From: an uncultured Ectothiorhodospiraceae bacterium
Lineage (GTDB): Bacteria; Pseudomonadota; Gammaproteobacteria; S012-40
Length of the DNA: 64,000 nt
NCBI GenBank assembly: GCA_945787125.1
Contig: CALZHW010000003.1
Coordinates: 4,094-68,093, forward strand
Direction of reading: 5' to 3'
Positions 9,093 through 31,400 of the stretch are shown in pieces. Below the pieces are notes generated by a model. The model worked only from the letters and a program-made list of their open reading frames with translations. It had not been told where the DNA came from and made no database searches. The position numbers and the translations under genes are program-made. Every line of letters begins with the position of its first letter. The stretch's first letter is position 1.

Positions 9093-9179
9093 ATGTTTGG
9101 AATAATTCCTAATTGGCACCCAATCTTCATGCATTTTGCTGTTGCGCTGTTTTCGCTGGCGGCCGGATTTTTTAAGGAG
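9093..9179 (+). pseudogene. 28-codon stub of a DUF2231-like membrane protein gene (paralog of 15727..16356), cut off by the efflux operon
   Basis: ATG...MFGIIPNWHPIFMHFAVALFSLAAGFFKE*. About 85% identical to the first 26 aa of ORF 15727 (MIEIIPNWHPIFVHFTVALLSLAAGLF). Homology ends where the AAGGAG RBS and TTG start of the next gene begin. Confidence 0.55.
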
Positions 9180-9187
9180 TAATTAAT

Positions 9188-11957: not shown

Positions 11958-14900
11958 TCACCAGCATCATTGACGCCTCCCTGCGTAATCGCTTCCTGAT
12001 TATCATCGCCACTATTATAATCGTGGCGGCAGGGCTGTGGTCGATGAAAAATACACCGCTGGATGCGATTCCTGATCTCTCAGATGTGCAGGTCATCGTC
12101 TTCACCGAATACCCTGGTCAAGCACCCCAAGTGGTTGAAGATCAAGTCACCTATCCGTTGACTACGGCCATGCTGGCCGTGCCCAACGCCAAGGTAGTAC
12201 GCGGTTATTCCTTTTTTGGTTTCTCCTTCGTCTACATCATCTTTGACGACGGTACCGACATGTACTGGGCGCGTTCGCGGGTTCTGGAGTATCTCAACTA
12301 CGTCAGCGGTCGTCTGCCTGATGGCTTAACACCTTCATTAGGGCCGGATGCCACCGGAGTAGGCTGGATCTATGAATATGCCCTGGTCGATAGAACCGGC
12401 AATACCGACCTGGCAGAATTGCGTTCTATTCAAGACTGGTATCTGCGTTATCCCTTACAGACGGTAGAAGGGGTCGCCGAAGTGGCGTCCGTTGGCGGTT
12501 ATGTCAAACAGTATCAGGTAGAAGTCGATCCCAATGCGTTGCTGGCCTACAGCATTCCGCTGTCGAAAGTGAAGCATGCCATTCAGCGCTCTAACAACGA
12601 TGTCGGTGGTAAGTTGGTGGAGATGGCCGAGACTGAATACATGGTGCGCGGCCTGGGTTATATTCAGTCTATTGATGACCTCAATGTGATACCGGTTGGC
12701 GTCGATGAAAATGGCACGCCGATTCGTTTGCAGGATGTGGCGCATGTGCACTTGGGCCCTGAACTGCGCCGTGGCGTGGCGGAATTCAATGGCGAAGGCG
12801 AAGTGGCGGGCGGTGTGGTGATTATGCGCTACGGTGAAAATGCCATGGCGGTCATTGAACGAGTGCGCGCCAAACTGGAAACGTTAAAACCCGGCTTGCC
12901 TGAAGGGGTAGAGATTGTGCCAGTCTATGATCGGGGCGACCTCATTACACGGGCGGTGGAAAACCTTGAAGAGAAATTGATCGAAGAGATCATCGTCGTT
13001 AGCATCATCTGTATCTTGTTTTTGCTGCATGCCCGTTCGGCTTTAGTGGCAATTATCTCCCTGCCTATCGGCATCTTGCTCGCTTTTACGATCATGAAAT
13101 GGCAGGGCATCAATGCCAACATCATGTCCTTAGGGGGGATTGCGATTGCCATTGGTGCCATGGTGGATGGGGCGATTGTGATGATCGAAAACGCGCACAA
13201 ACACCTGGAGCAAATGGTTAAAGAGAAAGGCCGAGAACTAACTTCGCCCGAACGATGGCAAGCTGTCTCAGAAGCATCCCGAGAAGTCGGCCCGGCACTG
13301 TTCTTTTCGCTACTGATTATCACCGTCTCCTTCCTGCCAGTGTTTACCTTACAAGCACAGGAAGGGCGACTTTTCGCGCCACTCGCCTTTACAAAAACCT
13401 ATGCTATGGCTGCGGCGGCTATCTTGGCGATTACCTTAGTACCGGTGCTAATGGGTTATTTTATTCGCGGCAAGATTCCGCCTGAAGCCAAAAATCCGGT
13501 CAACCGTTTTCTCCATTTCATTCATGTACCGACACTGGATCTTGCCATTCGCTGGCGTTGGGTGACATTAACGTTGGCCCTGCTGTTGTTAGTTGCAACG
13601 GCCTATCCACTCAGCAAGCTGGGCAGTGAATTTATGCCGCCGCTGAATGAGGGTGACATTCTTTATATGCCGACTACCTACCCTGGTGTTTCTATCACCA
13701 AGGCCAAGGAACTCTTGCAGCAGACAGACAAGATCATTAAAACGTTTCCCGAGGTGCAGAGTGTTTTCGGCAAGGTGGGGCGAGCCGAAACCGCTACTGA
13801 TCCGGCGCCGCTGGCAATGCTCGAAACCACGATTCGACTCAAACCCAAAGACGAGTGGCCTGACCCGAAAAAGACAGTGAAAGAACTGATGGACGAGATG
13901 GACGCGGCGATTAAATTTCCGGGGCTAGCCAACGCTTGGACCATGCCTATCAAGACCCGCATCGATATGCTTTCCACCGGTATTAAAACACCCATCGGCA
14001 TCAAGGTTAGCGGGCCTGATTTAAAGGTATTGGAGGAGGTTGGTAATGATATCGAGCAGGCCTTGAAACAACTACCCGATACGCTCTCTGCTTTTGCGGA
14101 TAAAGCAGCCGGTGGTTACTACCTCGACTTCGATATCAACCGCGAAGAGGCGTCCCGTTACGGGCTCACCACTGGCGATGTACAGGATGTGATTCAGACC
14201 GCCATCGGTGGCATGAACGTGACTCAGACCGTTGAAGGCTTGGAGCGTTATCCGATCAACTTGCGTTATCCCCGCGAGCTACGCGATAACCTCGATAGTC
14301 TAAAGCGAGTATTGATTCCCACACCCACCGGCGCGCAAATTCCTCTGTCGCTGGTAGCTGATCTGGAACTGCGTCGTGGTCCACCAGGCATCAAGAGCGA
14401 AAACTCTCGCCCCAATGCTTGGGTTTATGTGGATATCAAAACTTCGGACATTGGCGGTTATGTGGAACAGGCCAAAAAGGTGGTGGCCAGCCAGGTCAAA
14501 ATCCCGCCCGGCTACAACCTCGTGTGGTCCGGTCAGTTCGAGTACATGGAGCGGGCGGCCGAACGTTTACGTATCGTCGTGCCCGCTACCTTATTGGTGA
14601 TTTTTCTGTTGCTCTACTTCAACTTCCGCAACATCACTGCGCCGTTGGTCGTCATGCTCTCCATTCCATTTGGTTTGATCGGTGGCTTTTGGTTGATCTA
14701 TTTGTTGGGCTACAATCTCTCGGTTGCTGTGGTGGTCGGGTTTATCGCCCTGGCAGGAGTCGCGGCGGAGATTGGCGTTTTGGTGCTTACCTTCATCGAT
14801 CAAGAATTGGCTCGGCGTCGTAAAGAAAAAGGTCACTTAGACGCGGCTGACATCATGTCCGCTGTGCATCGCGGCACATCAGCACGGGTTCGTCCCATCG

Positions 14901-15148
14901 CCATGACGGCCACTGCAATTATCGCTGGTCTGCTACCCATCATGTGGGGCACTGGCACAGGATCTGAAGTGATGCAACGCATCGCTGCACCAATGGTGGG
15001 TGGTATGGTCACAGTCACGATTCTCTGCCTGCTGGTGTTACCAGTAATCTATGGCTTGGTTCTTCAAGTCCAGGAAAAATTTAAACAGGGTCATAACGAC
15101 CAGGAGACAGCTTCGCATAATGGGTTGGGCGAAACTGGTACTCGATAA
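11954..15148 (+). CDS. Heavy-metal efflux RND transporter (HME-RND, CusA/CzcA family)
   Basis: 1064 aa, 12 TM segments with two large periplasmic loops, and the characteristic AIVMIENAHK and GG..VM motifs of CusA/CzcA pumps. Confidence 0.9.
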   Translation: MITSIIDASLRNRFLIIIATIIIVAAGLWSMKNTPLDAIPDLSDVQVIVFTEYPGQAPQVVEDQVTYPLTTAMLAVPNAKVVRGYSFFGFSFVYIIFDDGTDMYWARSRVLEYLNYVSGRLPDGLTPSLGPDATGVGWIYEYALVDRTGNTDLAELRSIQDWYLRYPLQTVEGVAEVASVGGYVKQYQVEVDPNALLAYSIPLSKVKHAIQRSNNDVGGKLVEMAETEYMVRGLGYIQSIDDLNVIPVGVDENGTPIRLQDVAHVHLGPELRRGVAEFNGEGEVAGGVVIMRYGENAMAVIERVRAKLETLKPGLPEGVEIVPVYDRGDLITRAVENLEEKLIEEIIVVSIICILFLLHARSALVAIISLPIGILLAFTIMKWQGINANIMSLGGIAIAIGAMVDGAIVMIENAHKHLEQMVKEKGRELTSPERWQAVSEASREVGPALFFSLLIITVSFLPVFTLQAQEGRLFAPLAFTKTYAMAAAAILAITLVPVLMGYFIRGKIPPEAKNPVNRFLHFIHVPTLDLAIRWRWVTLTLALLLLVATAYPLSKLGSEFMPPLNEGDILYMPTTYPGVSITKAKELLQQTDKIIKTFPEVQSVFGKVGRAETATDPAPLAMLETTIRLKPKDEWPDPKKTVKELMDEMDAAIKFPGLANAWTMPIKTRIDMLSTGIKTPIGIKVSGPDLKVLEEVGNDIEQALKQLPDTLSAFADKAAGGYYLDFDINREEASRYGLTTGDVQDVIQTAIGGMNVTQTVEGLERYPINLRYPRELRDNLDSLKRVLIPTPTGAQIPLSLVADLELRRGPPGIKSENSRPNAWVYVDIKTSDIGGYVEQAKKVVASQVKIPPGYNLVWSGQFEYMERAAERLRIVVPATLLVIFLLLYFNFRNITAPLVVMLSIPFGLIGGFWLIYLLGYNLSVAVVVGFIALAGVAAEIGVLVLTFIDQELARRRKEKGHLDAADIMSAVHRGTSARVRPIAMTATAIIAGLLPIMWGTGTGSEVMQRIAAPMVGGMVTVTILCLLVLPVIYGLVLQVQEKFKQGHNDQETASHNGLGETGTR

Positions 15149-15184
15149 TTAATCATTTAGCCCAAAGTTTGTAAGGATTAAGCA

Positions 15185-15655
15185 ATGAGAAAAGTAGTAA
15201 AACCTTTATCAGCGATCACCTTCGTCGCATTGTTAGCGGCAACAGGATCTTTGTACGCATCAGGTGATCACTCACAGGGTCACGATGATCATAATAAGTC
15301 TGAAATGAAACATGATAATCACGGCTCTACCATGGGAGAAATGTTTCTAAAGAAAACGGAGATCGATGGTTACGATGTTAGTTTTCATATCATGAAAGCC
15401 AAACCTGGCAAACAGATGGGTGGCACCCATGACTTTATGGTTAAAGTCGAAAAAGATGGAAAGGCACTTTCTAACATTGTTATGAATACGAAAGTTAAAC
15501 ACCCAAACGGCAAGTCGGAAAGTAAAAAAGCCATGAAGATGGGGGATTGGCTGATGGCAGGTTATGACTTGGGGCACGAAGGTAAACACCAGTTAATGAT
15601 TTTGTTTAAGACCGCTGATGGTAAGAAACACAAAGGCGGTGTTTATTATCCATAG
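15185..15655 (+). CDS. Secreted His/Met-rich putative metal-binding protein, uncharacterised family (paralog A2)
   Basis: Signal peptide, His-rich N-terminus (GDHSQGHDDHNKSEMKHDNHGS), and the same conserved core as ORF 8013. Confidence 0.6.
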   Translation: MRKVVKPLSAITFVALLAATGSLYASGDHSQGHDDHNKSEMKHDNHGSTMGEMFLKKTEIDGYDVSFHIMKAKPGKQMGGTHDFMVKVEKDGKALSNIVMNTKVKHPNGKSESKKAMKMGDWLMAGYDLGHEGKHQLMILFKTADGKKHKGGVYYP

Positions 15656-15678
15656 TCCCTTAAAAACAGGACTGAATT

Positions 15679-15726
15679 ATGTCAATGATTATGACATCTC
15701 TTAACACAAGTAATGAGGAACATTAA
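15679..15726 (+). pseudogene. 15-codon remnant of a CMD-family gene start (paralog of 8511..9092)
   Basis: ATGTCAATGATTATGACATCTCTTAACAC... gives MSMIMTSLNTSNEEH*. The first codons match ATGTCAATCATTAACAC (MSIINT) of the intact CMD gene. It occupies the same position, between the A-paralog and the membrane protein. Confidence 0.4.
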
Positions 15727-16356
15727 ATGATTGAAATAATTCCCAATTGGCACCCGATTTTCGTGCACTTTACTGTCGCATTATTATCGCTGGCAGCCGG
15801 ACTTTTTGTCGTAACACCGTTTATTAAATCTCCGTTGAAAGAACAGTGGATCATCGTTGCCCGGTGGACGTTGTGGTTCGGCGCGGGAATCACCATCATT
15901 ACGGGACTCACCGGACTTTATGCATATAACACAGTTGATCACGATTCTCCGTCGCACCTGGCAATGACGGAACATCGCAACTGGGCGATTGTGACAATCT
16001 CGCTTTTTCTAGCGCTTGCTGCGTGGTCTATAGTCTGGGTACGTAAAAACAAAACGTTGGGAACAGCGTTTGTGGTGTGTATTGCGATCGCAGGCGCTGT
16101 CTTGGGCTCTACCGCTTGGCACGGTGGCGAAGTGGTCTATCGTTATGGCATTGGCGTGATGTCGTTACCGAAAGTAGAGGGTGACGGACATAACCACGCC
16201 CATGGCGAAAGTAGTGATCATAAAGATGCTTCTAAAACAGGTATGGAAGAACGTCACAATAATCACAGCGAAAGGGAACATCAAGATGAAATGAAGATGG
16301 ATTTCAGTGACATGGATACGATGAAAAATGATGATGGTCATGATCATGACCATTAA
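15727..16356 (+). CDS. DUF2231-like integral membrane protein with a His-rich C-terminal tail
   Basis: Four predicted TM helices, an N-terminal NWHPIFVHF motif, and a C-terminal HNHAHGESSDH...DDGHDHDH tail. Confidence 0.55.
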   Translation: MIEIIPNWHPIFVHFTVALLSLAAGLFVVTPFIKSPLKEQWIIVARWTLWFGAGITIITGLTGLYAYNTVDHDSPSHLAMTEHRNWAIVTISLFLALAAWSIVWVRKNKTLGTAFVVCIAIAGAVLGSTAWHGGEVVYRYGIGVMSLPKVEGDGHNHAHGESSDHKDASKTGMEERHNNHSEREHQDEMKMDFSDMDTMKNDDGHDHDH

Positions 16357-16498
16357 AAATTTTGTTGAATTAACCTGAGATCACTAATCATTGATATGTA
16401 CGATATTAGAGGCGATTTAAAGAGGTGTAAGGACGAGACTTTCCTTTGCTTGTTCGGGAGGTGAAGCAAATATAATGAATTAATGAAGGAGGCAGGTC

Positions 16499-18943
16499 AT
16501 GAAAACCGATCCGGTTTGTGGCATGGACGTGGCGGATGATACTCGATATCACACGAATCACAATGAGCAGATGTTTTACTTTTGCAGTGAGCATTGTTTG
16601 CATAAATTTGAGACTGAGCCAGAAAAATATGTGCAGACCGAGTCGCTCACCGATCCAGTGTGCGGTATGAATGTCACTGAGGAGTCGGTGCATCACACTG
16701 AGCATAGGGGCAAAACACATTATTTTTGCAGTACAGGCTGTTTGAATAAGTTTTTGGCATCATCAGAACAATATCTTAGGGATGTTCACTCTCAACACGC
16801 CGTTCATGATAATAAGTCGGTGGATAAGTCCGCGATCTACACTTGCCCCATGCATCCTGAAATCGAACAGCAAGGCCCGGGCAGTTGTCCTAAGTGCGGT
16901 ATGGCGCTGGAACCGCGCACGGTCGAAGCCGATGAGGATACCAGCGAACTGGATGACATGACACGCCGTTTCTGGGTCAGCTCTCTACTGGCGATCCCGG
17001 TTTTTTTTAGCGCTATGGCTGCCGAGTTTTGGCCAGAGTTCATCAATGGCCTAATTTCACCGGTCGCACGGCAATGGGGCGAGCTCATTTTATCCGCTCC
17101 TGTAGTGTGGTGGGGTGGCTGGGTTTTCTTTCAACGCGGCTGGCAATCTATTGTCACTCGCAATCTTAATATGTTCACGTTAATAGCTGTCGGTGTTGGT
17201 ATTGCCTGGATTTACAGTCTTATTGCAGTACTGCTGCCGGGTATATTTCCGCCCGCTGTCTTTAGTGAGGCAGGAGTAGTTCCGGTCTATTTTGAAGCTG
17301 CCGCTGTGATTACCGCTCTCGTCCTGTTAGGGCAAGTAATGGAGCTGCGCGCTCGTAGCCAAACCAATGCTGCCATTAAACTTCTGCTTGGCCTGGCCCC
17401 AAAAGCAGCGCGTATTGTTCGTGAAGATGGCACGGAGGAAGATATTCCGTTGGAGCATGTTCAAGTTGGAGATCACTTACGTATTCGTCCCGGCGAAAAA
17501 ATACCTGTGGATGGTAATGTTATCAATGGTGAAAGTAATGTTGACGAATCCATGGTGACCGGTGAGCCAATTCCTGTCGCCAAGTCAGTGGGCGAGCGAC
17601 TAATCGGCGCTACCGTCAACGGTACAGGTGGCCTGTTGATGCGCGCCGAGAAAGTGGGTGCCGATACGTTGCTCGCACAGATCGTCAAAATGGTTGCTGA
17701 TGCGCAGCGCTCCCGCGCACCGATTCAAAAATTGGTGGATATTGTTGCCGGTTACTTCGTACCGACAGTGGTGGTCATCGCCGTTATTACCTTCATTGTT
17801 TGGAGTTTGTTTGGGCCGGAACCCGCTATTGCCTATGCCGTGATTAACGCCGTGGCGGTATTGATTATTGCCTGCCCTTGTGCGCTAGGTTTAGCCACTC
17901 CCATGTCCATCATGGTTGGTACCGGCAAAGGAGCGATGATGGGGGTGTTGATCAAAAATGCGGAGGCATTAGAGATTATGCAAAAGGTGGATACTCTGGT
18001 TGTGGACAAAACCGGTACGCTTACCGAAGGCAAACCAAAGCTGGTCTCGGTGTTTGCCAATGAAGATTTTAAAGAGAATGACAATCTGCGTCTGGCTGCC
18101 AGTTTAGAGCGAGCTAGCGAGCATCCGCTGGCGGAAGCGATTGTGAAAGGCGCTGAGGAACGTGGAATAGATTTGGCTCAAGCTCAAAACTTTCAATCAG
18201 TAACTGGCAAGGGTGTTACCGGAAATGTAGACGGAAGGGAAGTGGCCCTGGGAAATCTAAAATTACTTGAGAGTCTCGGTATTGATGCGGGTGGTTTGCC
18301 GCAACAAGCAGACAATCAACGTGCCGAAGGTCAGACCGTGATGTTGCTGGCGGTTGATGGTAAAGCCGCGGGTTTGATCGGTGTCGCCGATCCAATTAAA
18401 GAGAGCACACCGGAGGCGATCCGTAATTTACATGAGGAAGGTATCCGCGTGGTCATGCTCACCGGGGATAGTCGCAAGACCGCCGAAGCAGTCGCTGCTA
18501 AACTGGGTATTGATCAAGTACACGCCGAAGTGTTGCCAGAACAAAAAGCTGAAGTAGTAAAACAACTTCAGGCTGAAGGATTCATCGTCGCCATGGCGGG
18601 TGATGGTATCAATGATGCGCCTGCTTTGGCCCAGGCCCATGTGGGCATTGCCATGGGTACTGGTACTGATGTAGCCATGGAAAGCGCAGGTGTAACATTG
18701 GTCAAGGGTGATTTGCGAGGCATCGTACGTGCTGTGCGATTATCGCGCGCCACTATGCGCAACATTCGCCAAAACTTGTTCTTTGCCTTTATCTATAACG
18801 CCGCCGGAGTGCCAATAGCGGCGGGGGTGCTTTATCCCGTCTTCGGATTACTACTCTCTCCCATGATAGCGGCAGCAGCCATGAGCTTCAGTTCGGTATC
18901 AGTGATCACCAATGCCTTACGGTTGAGGCGAGTTAAATTATGA
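16499..18943 (+). CDS. copA: Copper(I)-translocating P1B-type ATPase with an N-terminus of two TRASH/YHS domains plus a CPMHPE..CPKCGM domain
   Basis: TRASH/YHS motifs CGMDV...FCSEHC and CGMNV...FCSTGC, then [22 protein letters not shown], then the CPC transduction motif, [15 protein letters not shown] and the HP motif. 814 aa. Confidence 0.9.
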
Positions 18944-18961
18944 ATTTTTCAAACTGGGGAG

Positions 18962-19648
18962 ATGCAACAAATGCATGGTGATACTGGGTATGCCTATGGT
19001 ATGTGGGTAGTAGCGGCTTTTAACATCGGCATTTTTCTGTTTTTCATTTTAAGTTTTCTCAAGCCGCGGGGCAGCGAGGAATGGCGCAGCATGGGGGTAG
19101 TAACTGCCTTTCTGGTGGCACTCTTCGCCGAGATGTATGGTTTTCCTTTAACGATTTATCTGCTTTCTGGCTGGTTAGGCGATGCCTACCCAGTGTTACA
19201 ACCCTTCAACCATAAATACGGTCACCTTTGGGTAGTGGTGTTTGGTGGCTCAACCCTGGCTTGGGCAATAGTGATGGGTTTGAGTCTGGGGTTTATGATA
19301 ATGGGCTATATGCTACTCTCGAAGGGCTGGACGCAGATCCACGCTGCTCAAGGTGGATTGGTTTCTAACGGAATCTATGCTTATGTGCGTCATCCTCAAT
19401 ACACAGGATTGTTCCTCGTTATTATCGGTTTTCTAATTCAGTGGCCCACGTTGCTCACCGTGATAATGGCTCCCATTCTTCTTTATGCTTATACACATTT
19501 AGCACGAGTCGAAGAAAAGCGTGCGGAGAAAGTATTTGGTGACGCATATATTAAATACGCAGACAAAACGCCTGCTTTTTTTCCACCACTAAATCAATGG
19601 CACGCATTTCTAACACTAGAGGTAGACAAATTAGATGAGAGAAAATAA
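18962..19648 (+). CDS. Isoprenylcysteine carboxyl methyltransferase (ICMT/PEMT) family membrane protein
   Basis: Multi-TM protein with the NGIYAYVRHPQYTG motif of the ICMT family. Confidence 0.65.
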   Translation: MQQMHGDTGYAYGMWVVAAFNIGIFLFFILSFLKPRGSEEWRSMGVVTAFLVALFAEMYGFPLTIYLLSGWLGDAYPVLQPFNHKYGHLWVVVFGGSTLAWAIVMGLSLGFMIMGYMLLSKGWTQIHAAQGGLVSNGIYAYVRHPQYTGLFLVIIGFLIQWPTLLTVIMAPILLYAYTHLARVEEKRAEKVFGDAYIKYADKTPAFFPPLNQWHAFLTLEVDKLDERK

Positions 19649-19915
19649 AAAACGAGCTGACTAATTGTTGTTAGGATATTTTAACAATGAAATTTGGGTG
19701 TGGTTCAAAACAGAGTAACATATCTCGAGCCTCGAATGAGCCACTAATTGCTTTATTATTAGTCTATTTATCTGCAATTCAGCCGATTTCTAGCATTATT
19801 ATCTTTGGTATACTCGTAGTTTATTTATACCGTATCAACTAGAGGGCGACTGTTTTGAATGGTGATAGAAACTGTGTTTCTCGGTGTTTTAGAACGAAAA
19901 TTATGCGTTTGAGTT

Positions 19916-19943
19916 GAGATGAGATGAGATGAGATGAGATGAT
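19916..19943. repeat. Pentanucleotide microsatellite (GAGAT)x5
   Basis: gagatgagatgagatgagatgagatgat, 50 bp outside the left transposon end. Confidence 0.8.
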
Positions 19944-19991
19944 AAATTTAATACTCCGACAATTAATTCACGAGCCTTTTCGTACAACAAT

Positions 19992-20030
19992 GGGTCCCCA
20001 ACAATATAGGGGTGTAAATGCCACACTTTG
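19992..20030. repeat. Left terminal inverted repeat of the Tn3-family element
   Basis: Matches the reverse complement of 25590..25629 except for one missing G at the outer tip. Confidence 0.8.
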
Positions 20031-20100
20031 CAATCTAACGTATTGTTTATAATAACAATACTTCAGGACTTTTTTATCGAACTCATGCATAGTAAGTCAC

Positions 20101-23100
20101 TTAATTACCTTTTTTGGCTATATTTAGCGATTTTATTTTCTTATAATCAAATTGCGGATCATTTTCTGCTCGTCGAGTAAAGTCGTATTCCCCTCGAAGG
20201 TTCACGTGGGCCCAGGTAATGACAGATCCCTCACCAATCGATTTAATGATAATAGAACGCTGCTCTTTATTGGGTGTTTCTATGATTAAATTCGAAAGGT
20301 ACAAATAATTCCAAAGTATAATCGAATTTTGTAACAAGACTTGGCAGGCTGTTGATAGTTGCTGTTCTTCTTTTGTTCCAACTTGAAATGCCTGATCATT
20401 ATCAAAAAATACAGCATGTGCGAATTTATTGGTTTGTTCAATTCGATTTAATTGCTTTTGGATCTGTTGCCTTAGCTCCACATCATCATAATACGTCAAT
20501 ATGAAATTAGATTTTATGATTCTTCCAAGTTCTTGAAGTGCTTTGTATAAAGGGTGGGATTTGTTATATGAATTTAGTCGACTAAATAATTGAGATGCCG
20601 ACGTGTGGTTCATTTTTATCGTTGCGATGAATCTAAGCACATCGTCCCAATGTTGAAGAATATGCTTTTTGTCAATTGATCGACTGGGAAGAAGAACATA
20701 ACCTTTTTTCTCGTAGGTTCGTCTTGCAGAAAAACTGATTAATCGTTGGTGTCCAATGTTTTTTATTCGTGGCGCAAAATCAACACCAATCATATGGGTA
20801 GCTGCGAAAACTTGCTCAGTATATCCATGTGTGTCGGTTGAGTGAATTTGATTTTGTGAGACATTATTATGCATTAAACCATCAATGACATATGCCGCTT
20901 CTCGATCAGATGAACTAAAAACAGTTGAATAAAATAACGATTGTCGTTCATCAATAAAGGTATACATGGTTACCCCTTTTTCTTTACCAAAATATTTGAA
21001 CGAATAATTGGCATGGAGACTATCAACTGAGACATTCACTTTCCGGCCATCGCTACTGGAATGTAATATTGAAGGCTTATTAATATAATTATTGGCAAGC
21101 CCTAAGCCATGGATCGCACTCACAATACGCTGATTGGCTTCTGTGATATTTTTTAGATCAAGGCACCAATTAACTGCATTATGTAATATATGTTCAGAAA
21201 TGCCGGTAGAAATATTCGCTAGTTTTCGTATGCCAATATTACACCCCTTACCAATTACACCGGCTAAAAGGGTTTCTTCTGAAGGCTTTAATTTGACATT
21301 TTTAGTGCTAAAGTGTTTAAAACACTGAGTGAAATCTGTTGCTGCATTAACTTCTTTAAGGACTTTCAGTATGGGTGTATATCCGTTTTGAGTTAACGTT
21401 GTCGTGATAAATTCTTTGCCTTCATTATCGACGCCCGGTGTCGTAATGACAGGTTTCCCGGCAGCATTAATTTTAAAAAAGGGATTTTTATTGTCAATAA
21501 TGCGTTGATTAACCGAATGATATTTTTCATCTAATACCTCCTTTAGTTTGCCTAAATAATCCTTACCATCAGCAAATTTTGATAGATCACATTCCTCGAG
21601 TATGCGCTCTTTATTGTCTTTCCAATATTGTTTGTCAATCATGTAATCTTGAAATGCCCTGTATCGATAAGAATAAAGTAAATTTAATTTATCAGATCGA
21701 ATTCCTTTTGAAATATGAACAAACAAAAGGCATTTATAAAGGGGTACGACAAATTTATTCTCGTGGTAGAGACTGGCAAGTTCTGAGTCACTGAGAAATG
21801 CAGTGGGTGCTCGATGTGTTATTTTTCCATCAGTTTCTTTAAAATAATCAATTGCCTCCAGTAGTTCCGGTGACGAGTTTGTGCGATCAAATTCCAAAAC
21901 ATTAATAATACCGGATACTCGGCGCTGTAATTTATTTGACTGTGATTTAAGTAACTCGTAATAAGCTTGATTTCTTGCTTCTTTTGATAAATATTCATCG
22001 ATGGTGTTCAATTTTCCTTCGTCTTCTGTGGTTAAATCATCAAGTAAATTAACCAGTTCTTCAATTTTATGATATTTTTCATTTGGTGTAGCATCTTTGG
22101 ACTCTACAATCGTAATAACCGCTTTACTAAATTCCAATAACGACTTGTGCGAATTGTTTAATATTTGTAACGCTTCGTTTCTTTCTTTTTTTGTCTCTTG
22201 CTCTTTATTAGATAACTTGGAATTAACAGCATGAAGCATGGAATTCACCGATTTTTGGAGTATTTCAACCAAGGCATCTTGTCGTAAATAAAACTGATGC
22301 TTAATAAAAGCAAGAAGATGTAAATACACCTTATATCGATCCGACAATTGATTTAATTGCTGATAATCCACTTTTGAAAACCATGTCGCAAAATATTCTG
22401 TGGCAGGGTCACTGAGTGGCAATGTTTTAAGTATATTTTCCATTGACATAATAAGGTCTTTAAATATCAGCGTGTTTTTAATGTTTTCTTTAATTTCACC
22501 AGGTTTCAATCCTTGATTGATATTTTTTAAATCAGTGATGAAAGGGCGAGAACGTTGAAAATCGTTCTTTTCGTATGACAGTATGTTTTCTAAGCTTTGA
22601 CAATCTTCGCTGTTCAATTGCCTGGATAAACAATCAATTAACTGCAGCTCTGTTACGTTAATACAATCCTGAATGATGAGGCATAAGTCAGTATAGGAAG
22701 GTATACAAAATTGGTGTTTCCAGCACTGATCAATAAGTCCAATGAAAATGTCTTTAGGCTTAACTTGGTTATTCGCTTGTCGTAAAGCAAAGTTAGTGAG
22801 CATGTCATTTTCCGATGACCCAAATTTTGACCAACCTTGTTGGACTAAAATTTTGGAACGATGTTTAGAGTTGATTGTACTGTTGTATTTTTGCAAATCG
22901 ATATCTTTACATTGTAAAATTGCTTGGACGTGTTGAATATCGCGTTTTTTGAATTTTTCCGTGGGATAAAATCGAGCATTTGCCCGAAAATAGGCTAACT
23001 GCAAAAGAAAGCCAGCTCGCATATGATGATTTTCCATTCTGGATATGGATCGCTTTAAGCCGGGTGTTAATGAAAAATACAATGTCCGTTCTTCATTGTT

Positions 23101-23163
23101 GAATTTTGGTGGCAATTCGAATTGGCTTTTTTCCTGAGGCGACAGAATGGCAAGTAGAGTCAT
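20101..23163 (-). CDS. tnpA: Tn3-family transposase
   Basis: 1020 aa. N-terminal IR-binding region similar to Tn3 TnpA (..AGFLLQLAYFRANARF..) and a C-terminal DDE RNase-H-like domain. Confidence 0.9.
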   Translation of the reverse strand: MTLLAILSPQEKSQFELPPKFNNEERTLYFSLTPGLKRSISRMENHHMRAGFLLQLAYFRANARFYPTEKFKKRDIQHVQAILQCKDIDLQKYNSTINSKHRSKILVQQGWSKFGSSENDMLTNFALRQANNQVKPKDIFIGLIDQCWKHQFCIPSYTDLCLIIQDCINVTELQLIDCLSRQLNSEDCQSLENILSYEKNDFQRSRPFITDLKNINQGLKPGEIKENIKNTLIFKDLIMSMENILKTLPLSDPATEYFATWFSKVDYQQLNQLSDRYKVYLHLLAFIKHQFYLRQDALVEILQKSVNSMLHAVNSKLSNKEQETKKERNEALQILNNSHKSLLEFSKAVITIVESKDATPNEKYHKIEELVNLLDDLTTEDEGKLNTIDEYLSKEARNQAYYELLKSQSNKLQRRVSGIINVLEFDRTNSSPELLEAIDYFKETDGKITHRAPTAFLSDSELASLYHENKFVVPLYKCLLFVHISKGIRSDKLNLLYSYRYRAFQDYMIDKQYWKDNKERILEECDLSKFADGKDYLGKLKEVLDEKYHSVNQRIIDNKNPFFKINAAGKPVITTPGVDNEGKEFITTTLTQNGYTPILKVLKEVNAATDFTQCFKHFSTKNVKLKPSEETLLAGVIGKGCNIGIRKLANISTGISEHILHNAVNWCLDLKNITEANQRIVSAIHGLGLANNYINKPSILHSSSDGRKVNVSVDSLHANYSFKYFGKEKGVTMYTFIDERQSLFYSTVFSSSDREAAYVIDGLMHNNVSQNQIHSTDTHGYTEQVFAATHMIGVDFAPRIKNIGHQRLISFSARRTYEKKGYVLLPSRSIDKKHILQHWDDVLRFIATIKMNHTSASQLFSRLNSYNKSHPLYKALQELGRIIKSNFILTYYDDVELRQQIQKQLNRIEQTNKFAHAVFFDNDQAFQVGTKEEQQLSTACQVLLQNSIILWNYLYLSNLIIETPNKEQRSIIIKSIGEGSVITWAHVNLRGEYDFTRRAENDPQFDYKKIKSLNIAKKGN

Positions 23164-23266
23164 ATTAATTATCCTTAATTAAAAATTGACGGCAGAATGA
23201 TCTAATAAAGAGCCGTTAGACCTCGAATACGATGGGGAATCATGATACTGTATTGTTATCAAATAT

Positions 23267-23302
23267 CAATATGTCCGATAATAGTTATTATCGGACATAT
23301 TG
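23267..23302. promoter_or_regulatory. Perfect 17-bp inverted repeat with a 2-bp spacer between tnpA and the recombinase gene; candidate core recombination (res/IRS) site
   Basis: caatatgtccgataata-gt-tattatcggacatattg, located 50 bp upstream of the tyrosine recombinase start. Confidence 0.45.
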
Positions 23303-23350
23303 AATACGGCATATTTTCCGCTATAATTAGCATATTATGGAAAGCCTAGA

Positions 23351-24613
23351 ATGCCAATTATGAACCCAAAGCGCCAATCACCAATGCCAATTATTGATAA
23401 TCTCACTCATATTGGTAATCCCTTTAAACAAACAAATTTCTCCACTGACCGGTATTTAAATCATAAAGTAAGTCAATCGGATATCGATCTTGAGTACGCG
23501 CTGAAGTTTCTTTATAGTTTCAACGGCAGTACAGCCACTTATAATAGCTACCGAAAAGAAATTGAACGATTGATACAATGGAGTTGGCGTATTGAAAAAG
23601 TTTCGATATTGAGTCTCAGACGAGAATCAATCGAGGAATTCTTACGTTTTTGTTTCAATCCGCCCATGGCATGGATCGGTACAAAGCATGTTTCTCGATT
23701 TAAAACAAAAAACGGAGAACGATTAACAAACACCGATTGGCGTCCATTTGTCATTACGCTTTCAAAAACAGCGTTTCGAACGGGTGTTGAACTCGACCCA
23801 AAACAATTTTGTCCCTCACAGGCGTCCATTAAAGCGACATTTAGTATATTGTCATCCTTCTATGAATACCTTATCCAGGAAGACCTTGTTCAATCAAATC
23901 CCGTTAAACTCATTAAACAAAAAAGCAAATTTATACGAAAAGATTCCTGTAAACCAATCGTCAGGCGTATTAGTAAACTTCAGTGGGATTATGTGCTAGA
24001 AACAGCAGAATTAGCCGGAACTGATCAAACATTTGAACAAGAACGTACCTTATTTATCATGAATTGTCTTTTTGCGATGTATCTTCGTATTTCAGAATTG
24101 GTTGCAGATGAACGATCATCTCCAGTGATGAGCGACTTCAAAAAAGATCGAGACGGCAACTGGTGGTTTCATGTGATTGGCAAAGGTAATAAAAGTCGAA
24201 GTGTTACAGTTTGCAACGATATGTTAAAAGCATTAAAGCGTTATCGAAAAGCTCAAGGGCTGTCGCCTCTGCCCTCGCCTGACGAACAGTTACCATTAAT
24301 TTCAAAAATAAAAGGCAAAGGACCAGTCACTAGCACACGTCAAATTAGGCGGATTGTCCAAGACTGTTTTGATGGCGCATACCAGCGCATGAAGGCCGAT
24401 GGCCTAAAAGATGATGCGTCAGATTTGAAAGCTGCTACTGTTCACTGGTTGCGTCACACGGGCATCTCAGAAGATGTGAAATTTCGCCCTCGTGAGCATG
24501 TCAGAGATGATGCCGGTCACGCTAGTATGGCAACAACAGATCGATATGTTGATTCAGATTTACGAGAACGACACGCATCAGGAAAACAAAAACGGATTAA
24601 AGAAGTTTTCTAA
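23351..24613 (+). CDS. Tyrosine site-specific recombinase (phage-integrase family), probably the cointegrate resolvase of the transposon (TnpI/TnpS-like)
   Basis: C-terminal catalytic signature HWLRHTGISE...HVRDDAGHASMATTDRYV (R..H..R..Y). The gene lies inside the IR-bounded element. Confidence 0.8.
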   Translation: MPIMNPKRQSPMPIIDNLTHIGNPFKQTNFSTDRYLNHKVSQSDIDLEYALKFLYSFNGSTATYNSYRKEIERLIQWSWRIEKVSILSLRRESIEEFLRFCFNPPMAWIGTKHVSRFKTKNGERLTNTDWRPFVITLSKTAFRTGVELDPKQFCPSQASIKATFSILSSFYEYLIQEDLVQSNPVKLIKQKSKFIRKDSCKPIVRRISKLQWDYVLETAELAGTDQTFEQERTLFIMNCLFAMYLRISELVADERSSPVMSDFKKDRDGNWWFHVIGKGNKSRSVTVCNDMLKALKRYRKAQGLSPLPSPDEQLPLISKIKGKGPVTSTRQIRRIVQDCFDGAYQRMKADGLKDDASDLKAATVHWLRHTGISEDVKFRPREHVRDDAGHASMATTDRYVDSDLRERHASGKQKRIKEVF

Positions 24614-24724
24614 AATGTGACGTAATTCAATAATATATGATATTTTCACATATTTCCTTGCGAAGGATTTCTTATCTAATTAAGGATTATTGACTTTTAC
24701 CCGATAACCTCCCATAATGGGAGC

Positions 24725-25027
24725 ATGAGAATTATTGCTAAAAGGCGTCTTCGAGAGTTTTGGAGCTCAAACCCCAAATACGCAGATTCAAAAGCCCCCT
24801 TAGAAGCATGGCATGAAGAAGTGTCTGAAGCAGACTGGGAAAACCCACAGCAAGTTAAGTCCCAATTTCGTCATGCCAGCATTCTCAAAGATAGTCGTGT
24901 TGTATTCAATATCAAGGGAAATAATTACCGCTTAGTCGCCAAGATTAATTACCCCTATAGAATCGTTTATGTACGCTTTCTTGGGACTCATCGGCAATAT
25001 GATGAAATAGATGTGGAGACAATATAA
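24725..25027 (+). CDS. higB: HigB-like type II toxin (RelE/ParE superfamily mRNA interferase)
   Basis: 100 aa. FNIKGNNYRLVAKINYPYRIVYVRFLGTHRQYDEI resembles the HigB core (FNVGGN.LRVV....YIREV.THKEYD). The toxin gene comes first, as in higBA loci. Confidence 0.65.
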   Translation: MRIIAKRRLREFWSSNPKYADSKAPLEAWHEEVSEADWENPQQVKSQFRHASILKDSRVVFNIKGNNYRLVAKINYPYRIVYVRFLGTHRQYDEIDVETI

Positions 25028-25395
25028 TGAACATTAAACCAATCAAATGCGAAGCAGATTATGATGATGCGCTTGCTCGTGTTGATGATTTAATGGACGC
25101 GCTGCCAGATAGTCCTGAGGGTGATGAGCTCGATATATTGGTGACATTAATCGAGAAATATGAAGCGCAGCATTACCCTATTGATGCCCCAAACCCTGTT
25201 GAAGCTATTCGCTTTCGTATGGAACAGTATGATTTAAAAGATAAAGACTTGATCCCCTACATCGGTCAATCAGGGCGTGTATCTGAGGTGTTAGGTTTTA
25301 AGCGTAAACTCACACTATCAATGATTAGAAAACTTCACTCTGGCCTTAAAATTCCAACCGAAAGCTTGATTCGAGATTATGAGTTAAAGAATTAA
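25027..25395 (+). CDS. higA: HigA-like antitoxin (HTH, XRE-like)
   Basis: 122 aa. C-terminal HTH region GFKRKLTLSMIRKLHSGLKIP similar to HigA (GKRKLTLEHAKKL). The start codon overlaps the higB stop (ATAATG). Confidence 0.65.
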   Translation: MNIKPIKCEADYDDALARVDDLMDALPDSPEGDELDILVTLIEKYEAQHYPIDAPNPVEAIRFRMEQYDLKDKDLIPYIGQSGRVSEVLGFKRKLTLSMIRKLHSGLKIPTESLIRDYELKN

Positions 25396-25589
25396 TTAAG
25401 TGAATGGGCAAAACTTGTTATCGACAAACTGCGAATGAGTACTGTGTCGACATTGCTGTCATTTGTAAATTTCAACGAAAAAATATTTTTTGAATTAATA
25501 GAAACTTATTGATGGATAATTATGCTTTTGGGCCTTGGATTTTGAAAAAAGTCTTATATATTTTTAACTGAAAACAATAAGTTAAATGC

Positions 25590-25629
25590 CAAAGTGTGGC
25601 ATTTACACCCCTATATTGTTGGGGACCCC
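25590..25629. repeat. Right terminal inverted repeat of the Tn3-family element
   Basis: Reverse complement of IR-L. The outer tip reads GGGGTCCCC. Confidence 0.8.
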
Positions 25630-25633
25630 ATGA

Positions 25634-25710
25634 ACTCCGCCGCAGCCATGAGCTTTAGTTCGGTGTCGGTGATTACCAATACATTGTGGTTGCGAGGCGT
25701 TAAATTGTAA
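25634..25710 (+). pseudogene. Fragment of a second copA 3' end (last about 25 codons), immediately outside IR-R
   Basis: atgaactccgccgcagccatgagctttagttcggtgtcggtgattaccaatacattgtggttgcgaggcgttaaattgtaa is about 80% identical to copA 18860..18943 (..[23 protein letters not shown]). The downstream 30 bp also resemble the copA-methyltransferase intergenic region. Confidence 0.6.
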
Positions 25711-27968: not shown

Positions 27969-28349
27969 AAATTGCATGTAGCGTAAAGAGGCATTGCTTG
28001 AATTAACACCCCCATCGAGGCTGGGGCCTTATGTAAATCAAGCATTAATCCCATATATTTCCTCAACAAACGTTTCAACAGTAAGGGTTTGACACTATAT
28101 TGCACATCGTAGCCAGTTTTGACTCGATGTTCGCTGGTTCAGCGGCAGCATTTGTTACGTGCTAAACATAGGTTTAATCTGGGGCCGGGGAATTGAAGCA
28201 TGAATGTTTGCCTGGATGATGGTGGCGCCGGTGGAAAGCCACATGAGACAATCACATGAACTACAATATATTGAGGCGAGCGCATATTCATCGATTATGT
28301 TGCTGTTTGGTGGCTTCGTTTAGTGTTTAAACAAAAGGAGGTATGAGAT

Positions 28350-28655
28350 ATGAGCAAACGAGTAAATAGGGTGCTGATTCTATGCTTTGGCAGTGTGCTG
28401 ATCTCTTTGTCTTCTTTCGCTTCGGGCGGCGATTTTGAGCGCGGAAAGATGTTGTATGAAAACCAATGCCAAGGTTGCCATGAGAGCGTAGTCCATATTG
28501 AATCACGACGTACAGTTGATTCGTTACACAAGCTTCGGCAGCAGGTTGTGCGTTGGTCTGACGAAGTTGAGACGAAATGGGGTAAGGAAGACATCGCTGA
28601 TGTACTGGAATACCTCAACAAGCAGCATTACCAGCTTGAGGATGAACATACTTAG
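28350..28655 (+). CDS. Small secreted c-type cytochrome (single haem)
   Basis: Signal peptide and a CQGCHES haem-binding motif (CxxCH). 101 aa. Confidence 0.6.
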   Translation: MSKRVNRVLILCFGSVLISLSSFASGGDFERGKMLYENQCQGCHESVVHIESRRTVDSLHKLRQQVVRWSDEVETKWGKEDIADVLEYLNKQHYQLEDEHT

Positions 28656-28797
28656 AGGGAATGGTTTATCTGACCATAGACGATTGAGCCAGTGAACAGA
28701 GCCCTAGATTTGTCTAATTGGAATAAAAGTAACTTAGCCTAGCCAGGAAGCTGGCGTTTTTTAGCCTTATGTTAGGTATAAATTAAAAAGGTAAGAT

Positions 28798-29031
28798 ATG
28801 GCAGCAGCAACCATTACAAGTAAAGGTCAGATAACGATACCTGCTCCAGTCAGGATGGATCTTCATGTTGGCCCGGGTGATCGGATTGAGTTTGTAAAAC
28901 TCTCAGATGGTCGATATGAAGTCGTCGCCGCCACTCAGGATGTGTCATGCATTAAAGGGATGATTAAGGCGATCAGTGCTGTGAGCATTGAAGAGATGGA
29001 CGATGCCATCCGAAGGAAGGCGAGGCAATAA
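28798..29031 (+). CDS. AbrB/MazE/SpoVT-family antitoxin-like protein (apparently an orphan)
   Basis: SKGQITIPAPVRMDLHVGPGDRIEF matches the swapped-hairpin AbrB/MazE fold. No toxin ORF follows; only a 5-codon ORF overlaps its stop. Confidence 0.55.
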   Translation: MAAATITSKGQITIPAPVRMDLHVGPGDRIEFVKLSDGRYEVVAATQDVSCIKGMIKAISAVSIEEMDDAIRRKARQ

Positions 29032-29174
29032 TGTTACCCGTTTTTTAGGGTGTCTGTTAGTTTAGATTTGGGCTAAATTTTTTTCATCCCAAATCGTTTA
29101 GTCTGTGGGGACATCGCTTTGTAAGCTCTGGAGACTATGTATCAATTGAAGATATCACGTAGTGATGAACGCTA

Positions 29175-29510
29175 TTAATATTCCATTTCTGACGGTTCAA
29201 CTTCCTGTGTATGCTCAATACTTAAATGCTGAATAACATCTTCACTCTGGCTAGGAACGCCGATAATTTCGATTCCTTCGCTTGTTTCACGATAAAATAT
29301 TGTGTGCTTTCCTTCAAAATAACTTTGGTAACCTTCCTTTATTTCATCACGCTCTAAGCCAAGTTTGGGGTTTACCACTAACCATTCAAAACGGCTTTCT
29401 AATTGACCCATATATTTTTCGGCTTGTTTCTCCCCCCATGTTTCAATCGAGTAATCACGAATATTAGTAAGGTCGTTTTGGGATAATTCGGAAAGCTTAT
29501 AGTTTGGCAC
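29175..29510 (-). CDS. ParE/RelE-family type II toxin
   Basis: 111 aa with a ParE-like core (IRDYSIETWGEKQAEKY...FEGKHTIFYRETSEGIEIIGV). The start abuts the upstream antitoxin stop. Confidence 0.65.
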   Translation of the reverse strand: MPNYKLSELSQNDLTNIRDYSIETWGEKQAEKYMGQLESRFEWLVVNPKLGLERDEIKEGYQSYFEGKHTIFYRETSEGIEIIGVPSQSEDVIQHLSIEHTQEVEPSEMEY

Positions 29511-29758
29511 TATCTTTTGCCTTCCCTCATTTCTTGAAAAAATTCCCGTCCATCCATAGATTCGCCTCTGTTTAGCTGTGCTTCACCAATTGCAAGCTTT
29601 GCTCGTAGGCGTTCTAGTTTAATCTGCTCATATTCGGTTTGAGACATAACAACAGCTACGGGTCGCCCATGTTTTTCAATTGTCACTGGTTCACGTTGTA
29701 CCGTATCCATGAGCTTTCCGAAATGCTCTTTTGCTTCTTTTGCTGCAATGGCTATCAT
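29510..29758 (-). CDS. Phd/YefM-type antitoxin
   Basis: 82 aa. N-terminal region MIAIAAKEAKEHFGKLMDTVQREPVTIEKHGRPVAVVMS is typical of Phd/YefM. It is the first gene of the two-gene operon. Confidence 0.6.
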   Translation of the reverse strand: MIAIAAKEAKEHFGKLMDTVQREPVTIEKHGRPVAVVMSQTEYEQIKLERLRAKLAIGEAQLNRGESMDGREFFQEMREGKR

Positions 29759-29786
29759 GATAGACCTCCTAATTTAAAGTAGCTAC

Positions 29787-29822
29787 TAATGAACATAATG
29801 AACATAATGAACATAATGAACA
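29787..29822. repeat. Four perfect 9-bp direct repeats (TAATGAACA) just upstream of the phd/parE operon; candidate operator
   Basis: taatgaaca x4 at 29787..29822. The antitoxin start (minus strand) is at 29758. Confidence 0.6.
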
Positions 29823-30310
29823 TTATAGACACTTCATTCAAGTGAAAAATTCAGATATTACTGCATTAGCAAGGCGGTTTAATATACCTCTGGTTACTGC
29901 AGATGATCGCATTCGAAAGTATAAATATGTTAAAACAATATGGTAGGAACATTCCGTTGTTGACCTTGAATGCGCACATAAATCTACCTACGACTAATGC
30001 AATTTAACATAATATACATTATGCGCAATAAGATTCACATTATTTAGATAAATTTCAAGAACAAGAAATTGAATATCCACGTAAAAATTGATCGAATAAT
30101 TCTTTTTATTTCAATGCATTATAGTCGAGGTGACTAAATCCAACACTTTTACCGGCCGGACCTCTAGTATGTCCTCCTCCCTGTTTGGGAGTTTTGGTCT
30201 ATTCCCCACCACACAGGCTGACTATTTTATGCCGAGTAGGATAATATTTCTATCACAAAAGGACAAACGTCCGATATAATAAAGTCAAACGACTATTACC
30301 GGAGAATACC

Positions 30311-30751
30311 ATGTTATCGGAAAAAGACATCACCGATGCTCTGGGTGGGCCGAAGTTACTTGGCAAACAGGCCAACACCGTCCTCGATCTGGCTGACCTG
30401 ATCCAGCAAGGACTGCCCACGCAATCGGTATTTCACCTCCAAAAGGAAATGGCGTTACGGGATGACGACTATGCACCCACGTTAGGCGTGAGCATCAAAT
30501 GGCTCGGTCGCTACCGTAATACCCCTCGTCAGCATATGGATGCGAATGTGAGCGACCGCCTTTACCGTATCGCCCGTATCTTCGCCCTGGCGGAAGAGGT
30601 CTTGGAAGACAAGGAAGCCGCCAATCGCTGGCTGCATCGTCCGCAATCAGGGCTTGGCGAACGCACCCCGCTGGAACTAATGAAAAATGAGGTGGGCGCA
30701 CGGGAAGTCGAGGAGCTGCTGTATCGCATCGAGTACGGTATTTATTCATGA
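30311..30751 (+). CDS. Xre/MbcA/ParS-type antitoxin (DUF2384) partner of a RES toxin
   Basis: 146 aa. C-terminal LGERTPLELMKNEVGAREVEELLYRIEYGIY matches the DUF2384 toxin-binding domain. The stop overlaps the next gene's start. Confidence 0.7.
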   Translation: MLSEKDITDALGGPKLLGKQANTVLDLADLIQQGLPTQSVFHLQKEMALRDDDYAPTLGVSIKWLGRYRNTPRQHMDANVSDRLYRIARIFALAEEVLEDKEAANRWLHRPQSGLGERTPLELMKNEVGAREVEELLYRIEYGIYS

Positions 30752-31212: not shown

Positions 31213-31336
31213 CGCGTTTTCCGTTGTTTGTTGGGCGAGGTAATACAAAATTAACTACCCACAGGTATTTAAGTCGTCAGGATTAAACTGATTAAGATGG
31301 GAATGACCACATGCTTTTGCCCTAACCTGCATTTAA

Positions 31337-31400
31337 CCTAGAATAATCAGTTGGCGCGAATTTTTAGTGCAAAATATTGAAGTGCATAGTGAATTCAAGA
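31337..31400. repeat. Partial copy (left ~64 bp) of the MITE-like element found complete at 51293..51454
   Basis: cctagaataatcagttggcgcgaatttttagtgcaaRatattgaagtgcatagYgaattcaaga is shared with 51293..51356. Homology stops abruptly at 31400. Confidence 0.7.

Follow-up and report, generated by a model that had tools for sequence, protein, structure and literature searches.

A Tn3-family transposon with a XerL-type tyrosine recombinase and a candidate palindromic resolution site in an uncultured gammaproteobacterium

Organization of the transposon

A stretch of 64,000 nucleotides from an uncultured Ectothiorhodospiraceae bacterium (GenBank assembly GCA_945787125.1, contig CALZHW010000003.1), hereafter the window, carries at positions 19992-25628 an element that is likely a complete replicative transposon of the Tn3 family, with resolution by a XerL-family tyrosine recombinase at a palindrome and with an origin other than a simple insertion for this particular copy. 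Profile matches and perfect terminal inverted repeats (IRs) agree with a preliminary description of the same DNA, in which the element was recognized as a Tn3-family transposon that carries a tyrosine recombinase together with higBA. Only four genes lie between the IRs: the transposase gene tnpA, the gene for the tyrosine recombinase, higB and higA. The features of the element are listed below (aa, amino acids; ORF, open reading frame).

19992-25628: Tn3-family transposon, ~5.6 kb, intact from IR to IR
19992-20030, plus strand: IR-L, tnpA-proximal, GGGTCCCCAACAATATAGGGGTGTAAATGCCACACTTTG; subterminal similarity to the other end reaches 20075
20101-23163, minus strand: tnpA, Tn3-family DDE transposase, 1020 aa (PF01526, DUF4158, NF033527)
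23242-23269, minus strand: promoter-like site for tnpA, TTGATA-16-TATCAT (consensus scan, 10/12)
23266-23303, no strand: 38-bp perfect palindrome, TCAATATGTCCGATAAT-AGTT-ATTATCGGACATATTGA, with 17-bp arms and a 4-bp asymmetric centre
23300-23327, plus strand: promoter-like site for the recombinase gene, TTGAAT-16-TATAAT (consensus scan, 10/12)
23351-24613, plus strand: gene for the predicted XerL-family tyrosine recombinase; ORF of 420 aa, or 417 aa from the conserved start MNPKR at 23360
24725-25027, plus strand: higB, RelE-fold mRNA-interferase toxin, 100 aa (PF09907, 4.7e-32; PDB 5ycl_B and 5ifg_A, E ~8e-7)
25027-25395, plus strand: higA, antitoxin, 122 aa (PDB 5ycl_A and 5ifg_B, E ~8e-7, residues 6-109)
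25590-25628, minus strand: IR-R, recombinase-proximal; last base 25628, not 25629

Transposase and terminal inverted repeats

TnpA matched PF01526 across the full profile (7e-117), DUF4158, and over its full length NCBIfam NF033527 (transpos_Tn3) with 717 bits at a cut-off of 500. Residues D705, D777 and E909 do not vary among TnpA and 14 relatives aligned with it (87% to 23% identity), and their spacing is that of the catalytic triad of the family. The DDE domain, absence of which had been named beforehand as the result that would speak against the assignment, is thus present. The closest relative of TnpA is 87% identical; among named transposases, the closest, at 45% full-length identity, belongs to ISVsa19, a Tn3-like element from Aliivibrio salmonicida that differs from the window element in having no XerL-like recombinase beside its tnpA on the A. 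salmonicida plasmid. When the element was compared by Megablast with 72,556 plasmids, no match was obtained, and the scan of the genome collection with TnpA returned relatives at ≤55% identity only.

The two IRs are perfect reverse complements over 39/39 bp, a match equaled in 0/100 shuffles, and their length falls within the ~38 to 48 bp of terminal IRs in the Tn3 family. The IRs described earlier as 40 bp long are therefore real, but the perfect match spans 39 bp (19992-20030 and 25590-25628). Similarity of the two ends extends to 84 nt at 82%, and no further copy of the 39-bp repeat was found within the window.

As read in the window, the tips are GGGGTCCCC at IR-R and (T)GGGTCCCC at IR-L, that is, GGGG versus TGGG, and the preliminary description had taken them as asymmetric with one G missing from IR-L. 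Related IR ends were gathered from contigs with TnpA or recombinase relatives and by a metagenome scan for the conserved IR core. In the 26 independent ends obtained, the repeat starts with GGGTC (GGCTC in two Oleiphilus-like elements), with a variable base outside it: A in 15 ends, T and G in 5 each, and C in 1, so that 21/26 have a base other than G. The pattern holds for tnpA-proximal and recombinase-proximal ends alike. Judged from these ends, GGG is the canonical tip of the clade and the window IRs are symmetric. Because the repeat starts with GGG and the outside base varies, the extra G at IR-R, i.e., the C at 25629, is assigned to the flanking DNA, so the asymmetry is withdrawn. A sequencing or repair error at the IR-L tip, considered as a further explanation, was rejected since sister assemblies carry the identical tip.

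XerL-type recombinase

Pfam gave only a weak match to the recombinase (24 bits, under the cut-off), and the NCBIfam matches were weak and of Xer type, while a large-database search returned thousands of homologues. The best 120 of these share 67-78% identity with the window protein, span 391-454 aa (mostly ~417 aa) and belong for the most part to Gammaproteobacteria of marine or sediment origin. The best annotated relatives in a translated plasmid search are encoded on Coxiella burnetii QpH1-type plasmids (54%) and in Legionella (47-52%). Aligned with XerL of Legionella pneumophila, the sequence of which was taken from Table S3 of PMC9765430, the protein is 51% identical over 400 aa (E 3e-152), and with XerL of Coxiella QpH1 54% identical over 373 aa; the latter is encoded by CBUA0010, the xerL gene that PMC9765430 describes on the plasmid. 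Among themselves, XerL proteins from different genera of Legionellales share 54-61% identity. In a neighbor-joining tree, the clade of the window recombinase and 24 close homologues is the sister group of Legionellales XerL, and placed outside both are a Pseudomonas megaplasmid homologue, an Aquicella plasmid paralogue, XerH and XerC.

Residues R246, K278/K281, H365, R368, H390 and Y399, the R-K-H-R-H-Y set, are invariant in 25 sequences, and Y399 aligns with the DRY motif that holds the Tyr mutated in Coxiella XerL (Y389F; PMC9765430). The fold of the AlphaFold model matches XerD, XerH-difH, Cre and lambda Int. On homology, tree position and catalytic residues, the protein is assigned to the XerL family. 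An identity as an integron or phage integrase was considered and rejected; the tRNA-adjacent position seen in L. adelaidensis is the XerL locus of that species.

Palindrome and predicted promoters

The tnpA and recombinase genes are divergent, and the palindrome lies between them in an intergenic region of 187 bp. The −35 hexamer predicted for tnpA overlaps the outer end of the left arm, and that predicted for the recombinase gene overlaps the outer end of the right arm, from which we infer that both genes would be autoregulated. A like palindrome was present upstream of every close homologue examined; its arms measure 12-17 bp and follow the pattern ATAT.TCCGRTAWT, and its 4-bp centre is in most cases TGTG. 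The arms covary from locus to locus, and a TATAAT-like hexamer lies, with constant spacing, ~16-18 nt beyond the right arm.

When each locus was searched for a second palindrome or half-sites, only scattered degenerate matches were obtained, leaving one palindrome copy per locus. Since no additional half-sites were found, the palindrome may be a core-only site like loxP or difH. Its position and layout are those of the res site of Tn3-family elements in which tnpA and the resolvase gene are divergent, and together the recombinase and the palindromic site occupy the canonical position of the resolution system. The palindrome is accordingly proposed as a candidate recombination (res/dif-like) site and operator.

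HigB/HigA toxin-antitoxin pair

Downstream of the recombinase gene, the start of higA overlaps the stop codon of higB by 1 nt, with the toxin gene first. HigA gave no match in Pfam and NCBIfam, and its identity was settled by a PDB sequence search; both proteins match 5ifg and 5ycl, the solved HigB-HigA structures from Escherichia coli and Shigella. With a toxin of HigB fold encoded upstream of the helix-turn-helix antitoxin HigA, the pair is a predicted type II toxin-antitoxin (TA) system of the HigBA type.

As in the TA pairs embedded in Tn3-family elements (Lima-Mendez et al. 2020, PMC7157771), the window pair adjoins the resolvase gene and is not distal cargo, which fits the known Tn3 habit of TA modules beside the resolvase. 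It differs from the surveyed pairs in lying downstream and not upstream of the recombinase gene, and in its toxin, PF09907 HigB_toxin of the E. coli HigB type, which is outside the five toxin families of that survey (Gp49, PIN_3, PIN, ParE and HEPN). Relatives of the window TnpA likewise have TA pairs beside tnpA. In two of them, with no recombinase nearby, a Phd/YafO pair (L003, 4135-4859; TnpA 52% identical) and a TacA/GNAT toxin pair (L088, 8135-8962; TnpA 64% identical) lie directly beside tnpA.

Related elements and tnpA-less forms

The divergent unit of tnpA, palindrome and recombinase gene recurs in three other elements (L019, L020-22 and L023-24), with TnpA 87%, 68% and 64% and the recombinase 74%, 72% and 71% identical to the window proteins, respectively. 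The divergence of the recombinase does not track that of TnpA, which suggests exchange of the module at the palindrome. Three TnpA relatives are without the recombinase (L001, L003 and L088).

Far more frequent than these full units are recombinase genes that have no tnpA. Half elements, consisting of the palindrome, the recombinase gene and a GGGTC-type IR but no tnpA, were found at five loci, one of them (L010) on an Aliikangiella chromosome. Their IR follows 57-144 bp after the stop codon of the recombinase gene, and their left edge lies at the palindrome or within ~40 bp of it. Solo forms have no detectable IR; in L011-13, the recombinase gene lies between methionine-salvage genes, and L014 likewise has no IR.

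L010, 7920-9326: half element with IR
L073, 1190-2674: half element with IR
L125, 9924-11360: half element with IR
L128, 18-1570: half element with IR
L138, 1-1381: half element with IR
L011, 7900-9254: solo form, no IR detected
L014, 7900-9245: solo form, no IR detected

The copies without tnpA sit in unrelated chromosomal contexts, and in the solo copies the palindrome arms are still symmetric and covarying. In the recombinase tree, full, half and solo forms do not group separately. One possibility is that the half elements arose by recombinase-mediated exchange at the palindrome or by processing of one-ended products.

Two further loci carry IR-like ends. In L040 (4586-4777), two ends face each other 192 bp apart, with arms that differ at 8/32 positions; no duplication was seen in the flanks of this pair (GTGTG and TTATG), which may be a Tn3-derived miniature element. 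L071 (679-2882) is a decayed relative with tnpA fragments (residues 1-52, 32-237 and 966-1015) beside an intact IR.

Comparison with known site-specific recombination systems

XerL was described in 2022 as a chromosome dimer resolvase specific to Legionellales, with an origin unaccounted for. Recombination at the dif site of Legionella requires Lpg1867 (XerL of L. pneumophila), which is also sufficient for it; Coxiella XerL and its dif can substitute for the Legionella system, and the dif sites of Legionella and Coxiella are unusual in having perfectly symmetric 10-12-bp arms (PMC9765430). The window recombinase, at 51-54% end-to-end identity, is about as close to these proteins as XerL is across genera, and it resembles them in its catalytic residues and in acting as a predicted single recombinase. 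Its cognate-looking site is likened to theirs by architecture, being a perfectly symmetric palindrome with a short centre. The differences are that the window gene sits inside a Tn3-family transposon, in a host for which the best matches of a DnaK search bore only names of unclassified Gammaproteobacteria and none from Legionellales, that its site is directly upstream of the gene whereas the Legionella dif is >400 kb from the gene, and that the arms are of 17 bp compared to 10-12 bp. No palindrome of window-like sequence was found on the Coxiella plasmid QpH1. On that plasmid (L152), a palindrome at 13171-13196, AAAAGCGCTC-ACGAGC-GAGCGCTTTT, with 10-bp arms and a 6-bp centre, lies ~540 bp upstream of xerL; it may be the published plasmid dif, and in sequence it does not resemble the window palindrome.

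Tn4430 and Tn5401 with TnpI share with the window element membership of the Tn3 family, a tyrosine recombinase, and an inverted-repeat core site that adjoins the recombinase gene and overlaps promoters which the recombinase would be expected to regulate. In contrast, TnpI has ~280-310 aa and is colinear with tnpA, whereas the window recombinase has 417-420 aa and is divergent from it, and the internal recombination site (IRS) of TnpI combines an IR1-IR2 core with DR1/DR2 accessory repeats (PMC7157771 for the TnpI layout), while no such repeats were found at the window site. The Tn4651/TnXax1 group, with TnpS, TnpT and the rst site, likewise has a tyrosine recombinase and inverted repeats between divergent genes. 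In the window, however, the divergent partner is tnpA, no TnpT-like gene lies inside the IRs, and a single palindrome is present instead of the two inverted-repeat pairs of rst. The recombinase is thus neither TnpI-like nor TnpS/TnpT-like, being set apart by length, gene order and site layout and not by sequence alignment.

XerH/difH and XerS/difSL are also single Xer-type recombinases encoded beside their sites, a layout long suspected to move as one module, and XerH-difH was among the best structural matches. Their sequence similarity to the window recombinase is distant (~15% identity in the structural alignment), and to our knowledge neither has been reported within Tn3 IRs. The survey of the Tn3 family lists TnpR, TnpI and TnpS+TnpT as the only resolvase types (PMC7157771). 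In PMC9765430, Tn3 is never mentioned and "transposon" occurs only in a reference title, and of the XerL literature searched, two relevant papers use the name XerL and none mentions transposons. As a putative resolution module of Tn3 elements, the XerL type would therefore be new to the family.

Flanking DNA and missing target-site duplication

After correction of the boundaries, the flanking DNA reads as follows.

19649-19991, no strand: left flank, non-coding, downstream of a methyltransferase gene, with a (GAGAT)n repeat; unrelated to the ATPase remnant
25629-25710, plus strand: right flank, last 27 codons and stop codon of a copA-like P-type ATPase gene (from the translation)

The 5-bp flanks, reported earlier as unequal and without target-site duplication, remain so in corrected form (ACAAT on the left, CATGA on the right) and are shared by the sister assemblies, and no direct repeat appeared when either boundary was shifted; identical repeats at redefined IR boundaries had been named beforehand as the finding that would overturn the preliminary description. 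The earlier view that the two junctions do not stem from one simple insertion was strengthened by the truncation of the copA-like gene at IR-R, a break in composition at IR-L, and a break of a sister contig in tnpA.

On the right side, the ATPase remnant is 81% identical to residues 788-814 of an intact ATPase encoded at 16499-18943, and the homology begins at 25627, exactly at IR-R. The 5' part of the truncated gene was not found elsewhere in the window. On the left side, the methyltransferase gene closes a cusRS-cusCBA-copA cluster. The GAGAT pentanucleotide is tandemly repeated in ~5 copies at 19910-19945, 47 bp left of IR-L. Tetranucleotide composition of the left 19.6 kb correlates internally at 0.87 and at 0.66-0.74 with the right-hand segments, which correlate among themselves at 0.89-0.94, with the break at IR-L. 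The transposon itself correlates at 0.83-0.90 with the right side and at 0.55 with the left. GC content is 0.48 left of the transposon (1-19650) versus 0.42 right of it (25700-64000). Housekeeping-type genes lie on both sides (BCKDH, LeuDH, acyl-CoA dehydrogenase and prp on the left; hrcA-grpE-dnaK-dnaJ and recN on the right).

The sequence derives from metagenome-assembled genomes (MAGs). The window arrangement is present in three assemblies (GCA_945787865, GCA_945787225 and a 72,573-bp contig), with an indel difference elsewhere. A sister contig (L018; GCA_945786995, contig CALZGR010000137) is 100% identical over 11.5 kb and starts at window position 23136, 28 bp inside tnpA, which suggests a repeat or a population polymorphism at the boundary of tnpA and the recombinase gene. 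The proteins of the left side occur on three contigs, and four contigs carry those of the right side and the recombinase. No second copy of the element was found within 6 kb beyond the left end of the contig, which goes on into BCKDH E2, prpB and prpC. An empty site or alternative junction was sought via the ATPase (L151), cusA (L154) and the left contig end (L155), and these searches were uninformative.

IR-R is a genuine transposition junction in the truncated copA-like gene, and IR-L abuts DNA of another origin. Because a copA-like gene is cut at IR-R and unrelated DNA with a change of composition is present at IR-L, this copy is probably not a simple insertion. The missing duplication concerns this copy only and points to a secondary junction or a chimeric contig, not to a different mechanism.

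Other features of the window

Right of tsp, at ~28300-31250, there are TA genes for a MazE-like antitoxin, ParE/Phd and Xre-MbcA/RES, followed by a truncated PEP-utilizers_C gene (31364-31927); the region resembles an island rich in addiction modules. Two convergent genes of ~1060 aa at 38681-45272 encode surface-protein-like products with SdrD_B and Calx-beta domains. The cumulative GC skew of the window peaks at ~41-42 kb, where these convergent genes meet. The peak could mark a replication terminus or be a mere effect of gene orientation, which the local skew tracks.

Discussion

Sequence homology and gene order, together with invariant catalytic residues, a conserved site and the repeated occurrence of the unit, are the observations behind the mechanism proposed here; the element is probably functional. 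TnpA, with its D705/D777/E909 triad, would act on the two 39-bp GGG-tipped IRs, and copy-and-paste transposition would yield a cointegrate, which the XerL-family recombinase of the element itself would resolve at the 38-bp palindrome. Binding of the recombinase to the palindrome would repress tnpA and its own gene, as at other Tn3-family res sites, and HigB/HigA would serve as an addiction module for whichever replicon carries the element. For the present copy, with its IR-R junction inside a copA-like gene and IR-L beside compositionally foreign DNA, the simplest readings are that it is one junction of a cointegrate, formed by a donor with the element and the chromosome, which stayed unresolved or was deleted in part; that two copies underwent an exchange, either by homology or at the palindrome; or that intramolecular transposition made an adjacent deletion. 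The structure would follow equally from each.

Several observations weigh against this interpretation. Beside the palindrome, the 187-bp intergenic region yielded no accessory repeats for recombinase binding, and a core-only site would be without the topological selectivity typical of resolution sites. The recombinase model is of moderate quality, with a predicted local distance difference test (pLDDT) score of 70.6 and values <50 at the C terminus, which holds the catalytic Tyr. Homologues of the recombinase far outnumber those of TnpA and often occur without tnpA, so that the module has a life outside transposition. No second IR was found within 8-10 kb in L001, L003, L019, L020, L023 and L088, and with no relative that has both ends, 5-bp duplication and mobility are not demonstrable for the clade. 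To these are added the MAG origin of the sequence and the sister contig that ends 28 bp inside tnpA.

The frequent occurrence of the module without tnpA, on many chromosomes and either with an IR (the five half elements) or with none (L011-13 and L014), would also suit a self-contained dif/Xer-like module that rides on Tn3 ends and is not a cointegrate-resolution system, its main role being dimer resolution or stabilization of the host replicon, or site-specific integration or rearrangement. The closest characterized relatives are indeed chromosome-dimer resolvases, the palindrome arms stay symmetric and covarying in solo copies, accessory sites were not found, and the TnpA relatives L001, L003 and L088 are without the recombinase. 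We nevertheless regard this explanation as unlikely. Between the IRs there is no second gene for a resolvase, which a replicative Tn3-family element requires; the site is placed exactly at the res position of divergent genes and overlaps both predicted promoters; and the linkage to tnpA recurs in four independent elements. The roles in stabilization and resolution are also not mutually exclusive. Very improbable is a TnpI-like module combined with an IR-L in which the absence of a terminal G is due to an error in sequencing or repair. Classical Tn3-family IRs begin with GGGG, and the window alone, with GGGG at IR-R and TGGG at IR-L, would fit such a loss, but 21/26 related ends have a base other than G before GGG and the tip is identical in sister assemblies. 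The recombinase, moreover, is XerL-like, divergent and 417-420 aa long, and its palindrome is bare of the direct-repeat subsites of TnpI.

The junctions of this copy, in turn, could reflect an assembly artifact, in which a chimeric contig joins two loci or genomes that each hold a normally inserted copy and the duplication is missing for that reason. Such a chimera would agree with the origin of all copies from MAGs, with the sharp change of composition exactly at IR-L, the housekeeping-type genes of the left 19.6 kb included, with the sister assembly that breaks 28 bp inside tnpA, and with the uneven contig counts (three for the left-side proteins, four for the right-side proteins and the recombinase). 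Yet the identical join occurs in three assemblies of unlike extent with an indel elsewhere, a graph assembler normally halts at a repeat with two alternative flanks, and exact-protein look-ups, the only kind of search made for it, revealed no contig with alternative flanks. Because the join recurs and graph assemblers normally behave otherwise at branching repeats, we consider a chimera quite improbable and favor a rearranged transposon copy. Next to a copper-resistance cluster, the missing duplication accordingly points to a junction that was rearranged or belongs to a cointegrate, or else to a MAG chimera.

The recurrent XerL-type module, if confirmed in this role, would add a fourth resolvase type to TnpR, TnpI and TnpS+TnpT of the Tn3 family (PMC7157771). 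An evolutionary link to the chromosome dimer resolution system of Legionellales is possible, and it would tie transposon resolution to dimer resolution, two fields so far unlinked. We advance it as a tentative and rather doubtful scenario that Tn3 transposons of environmental Gammaproteobacteria carry a portable dif/XerL module as this fourth type, that it was the source or a sibling of dimer resolution in Legionellales, and that the half elements are the trace of its deposition, after which modules were kept and possibly domesticated. A unit of site and recombinase borne on a transposon would offer a concrete route for the spread and domestication of single-recombinase Xer systems, and with one protein and a 38-bp site it is also a compact candidate recombination tool.

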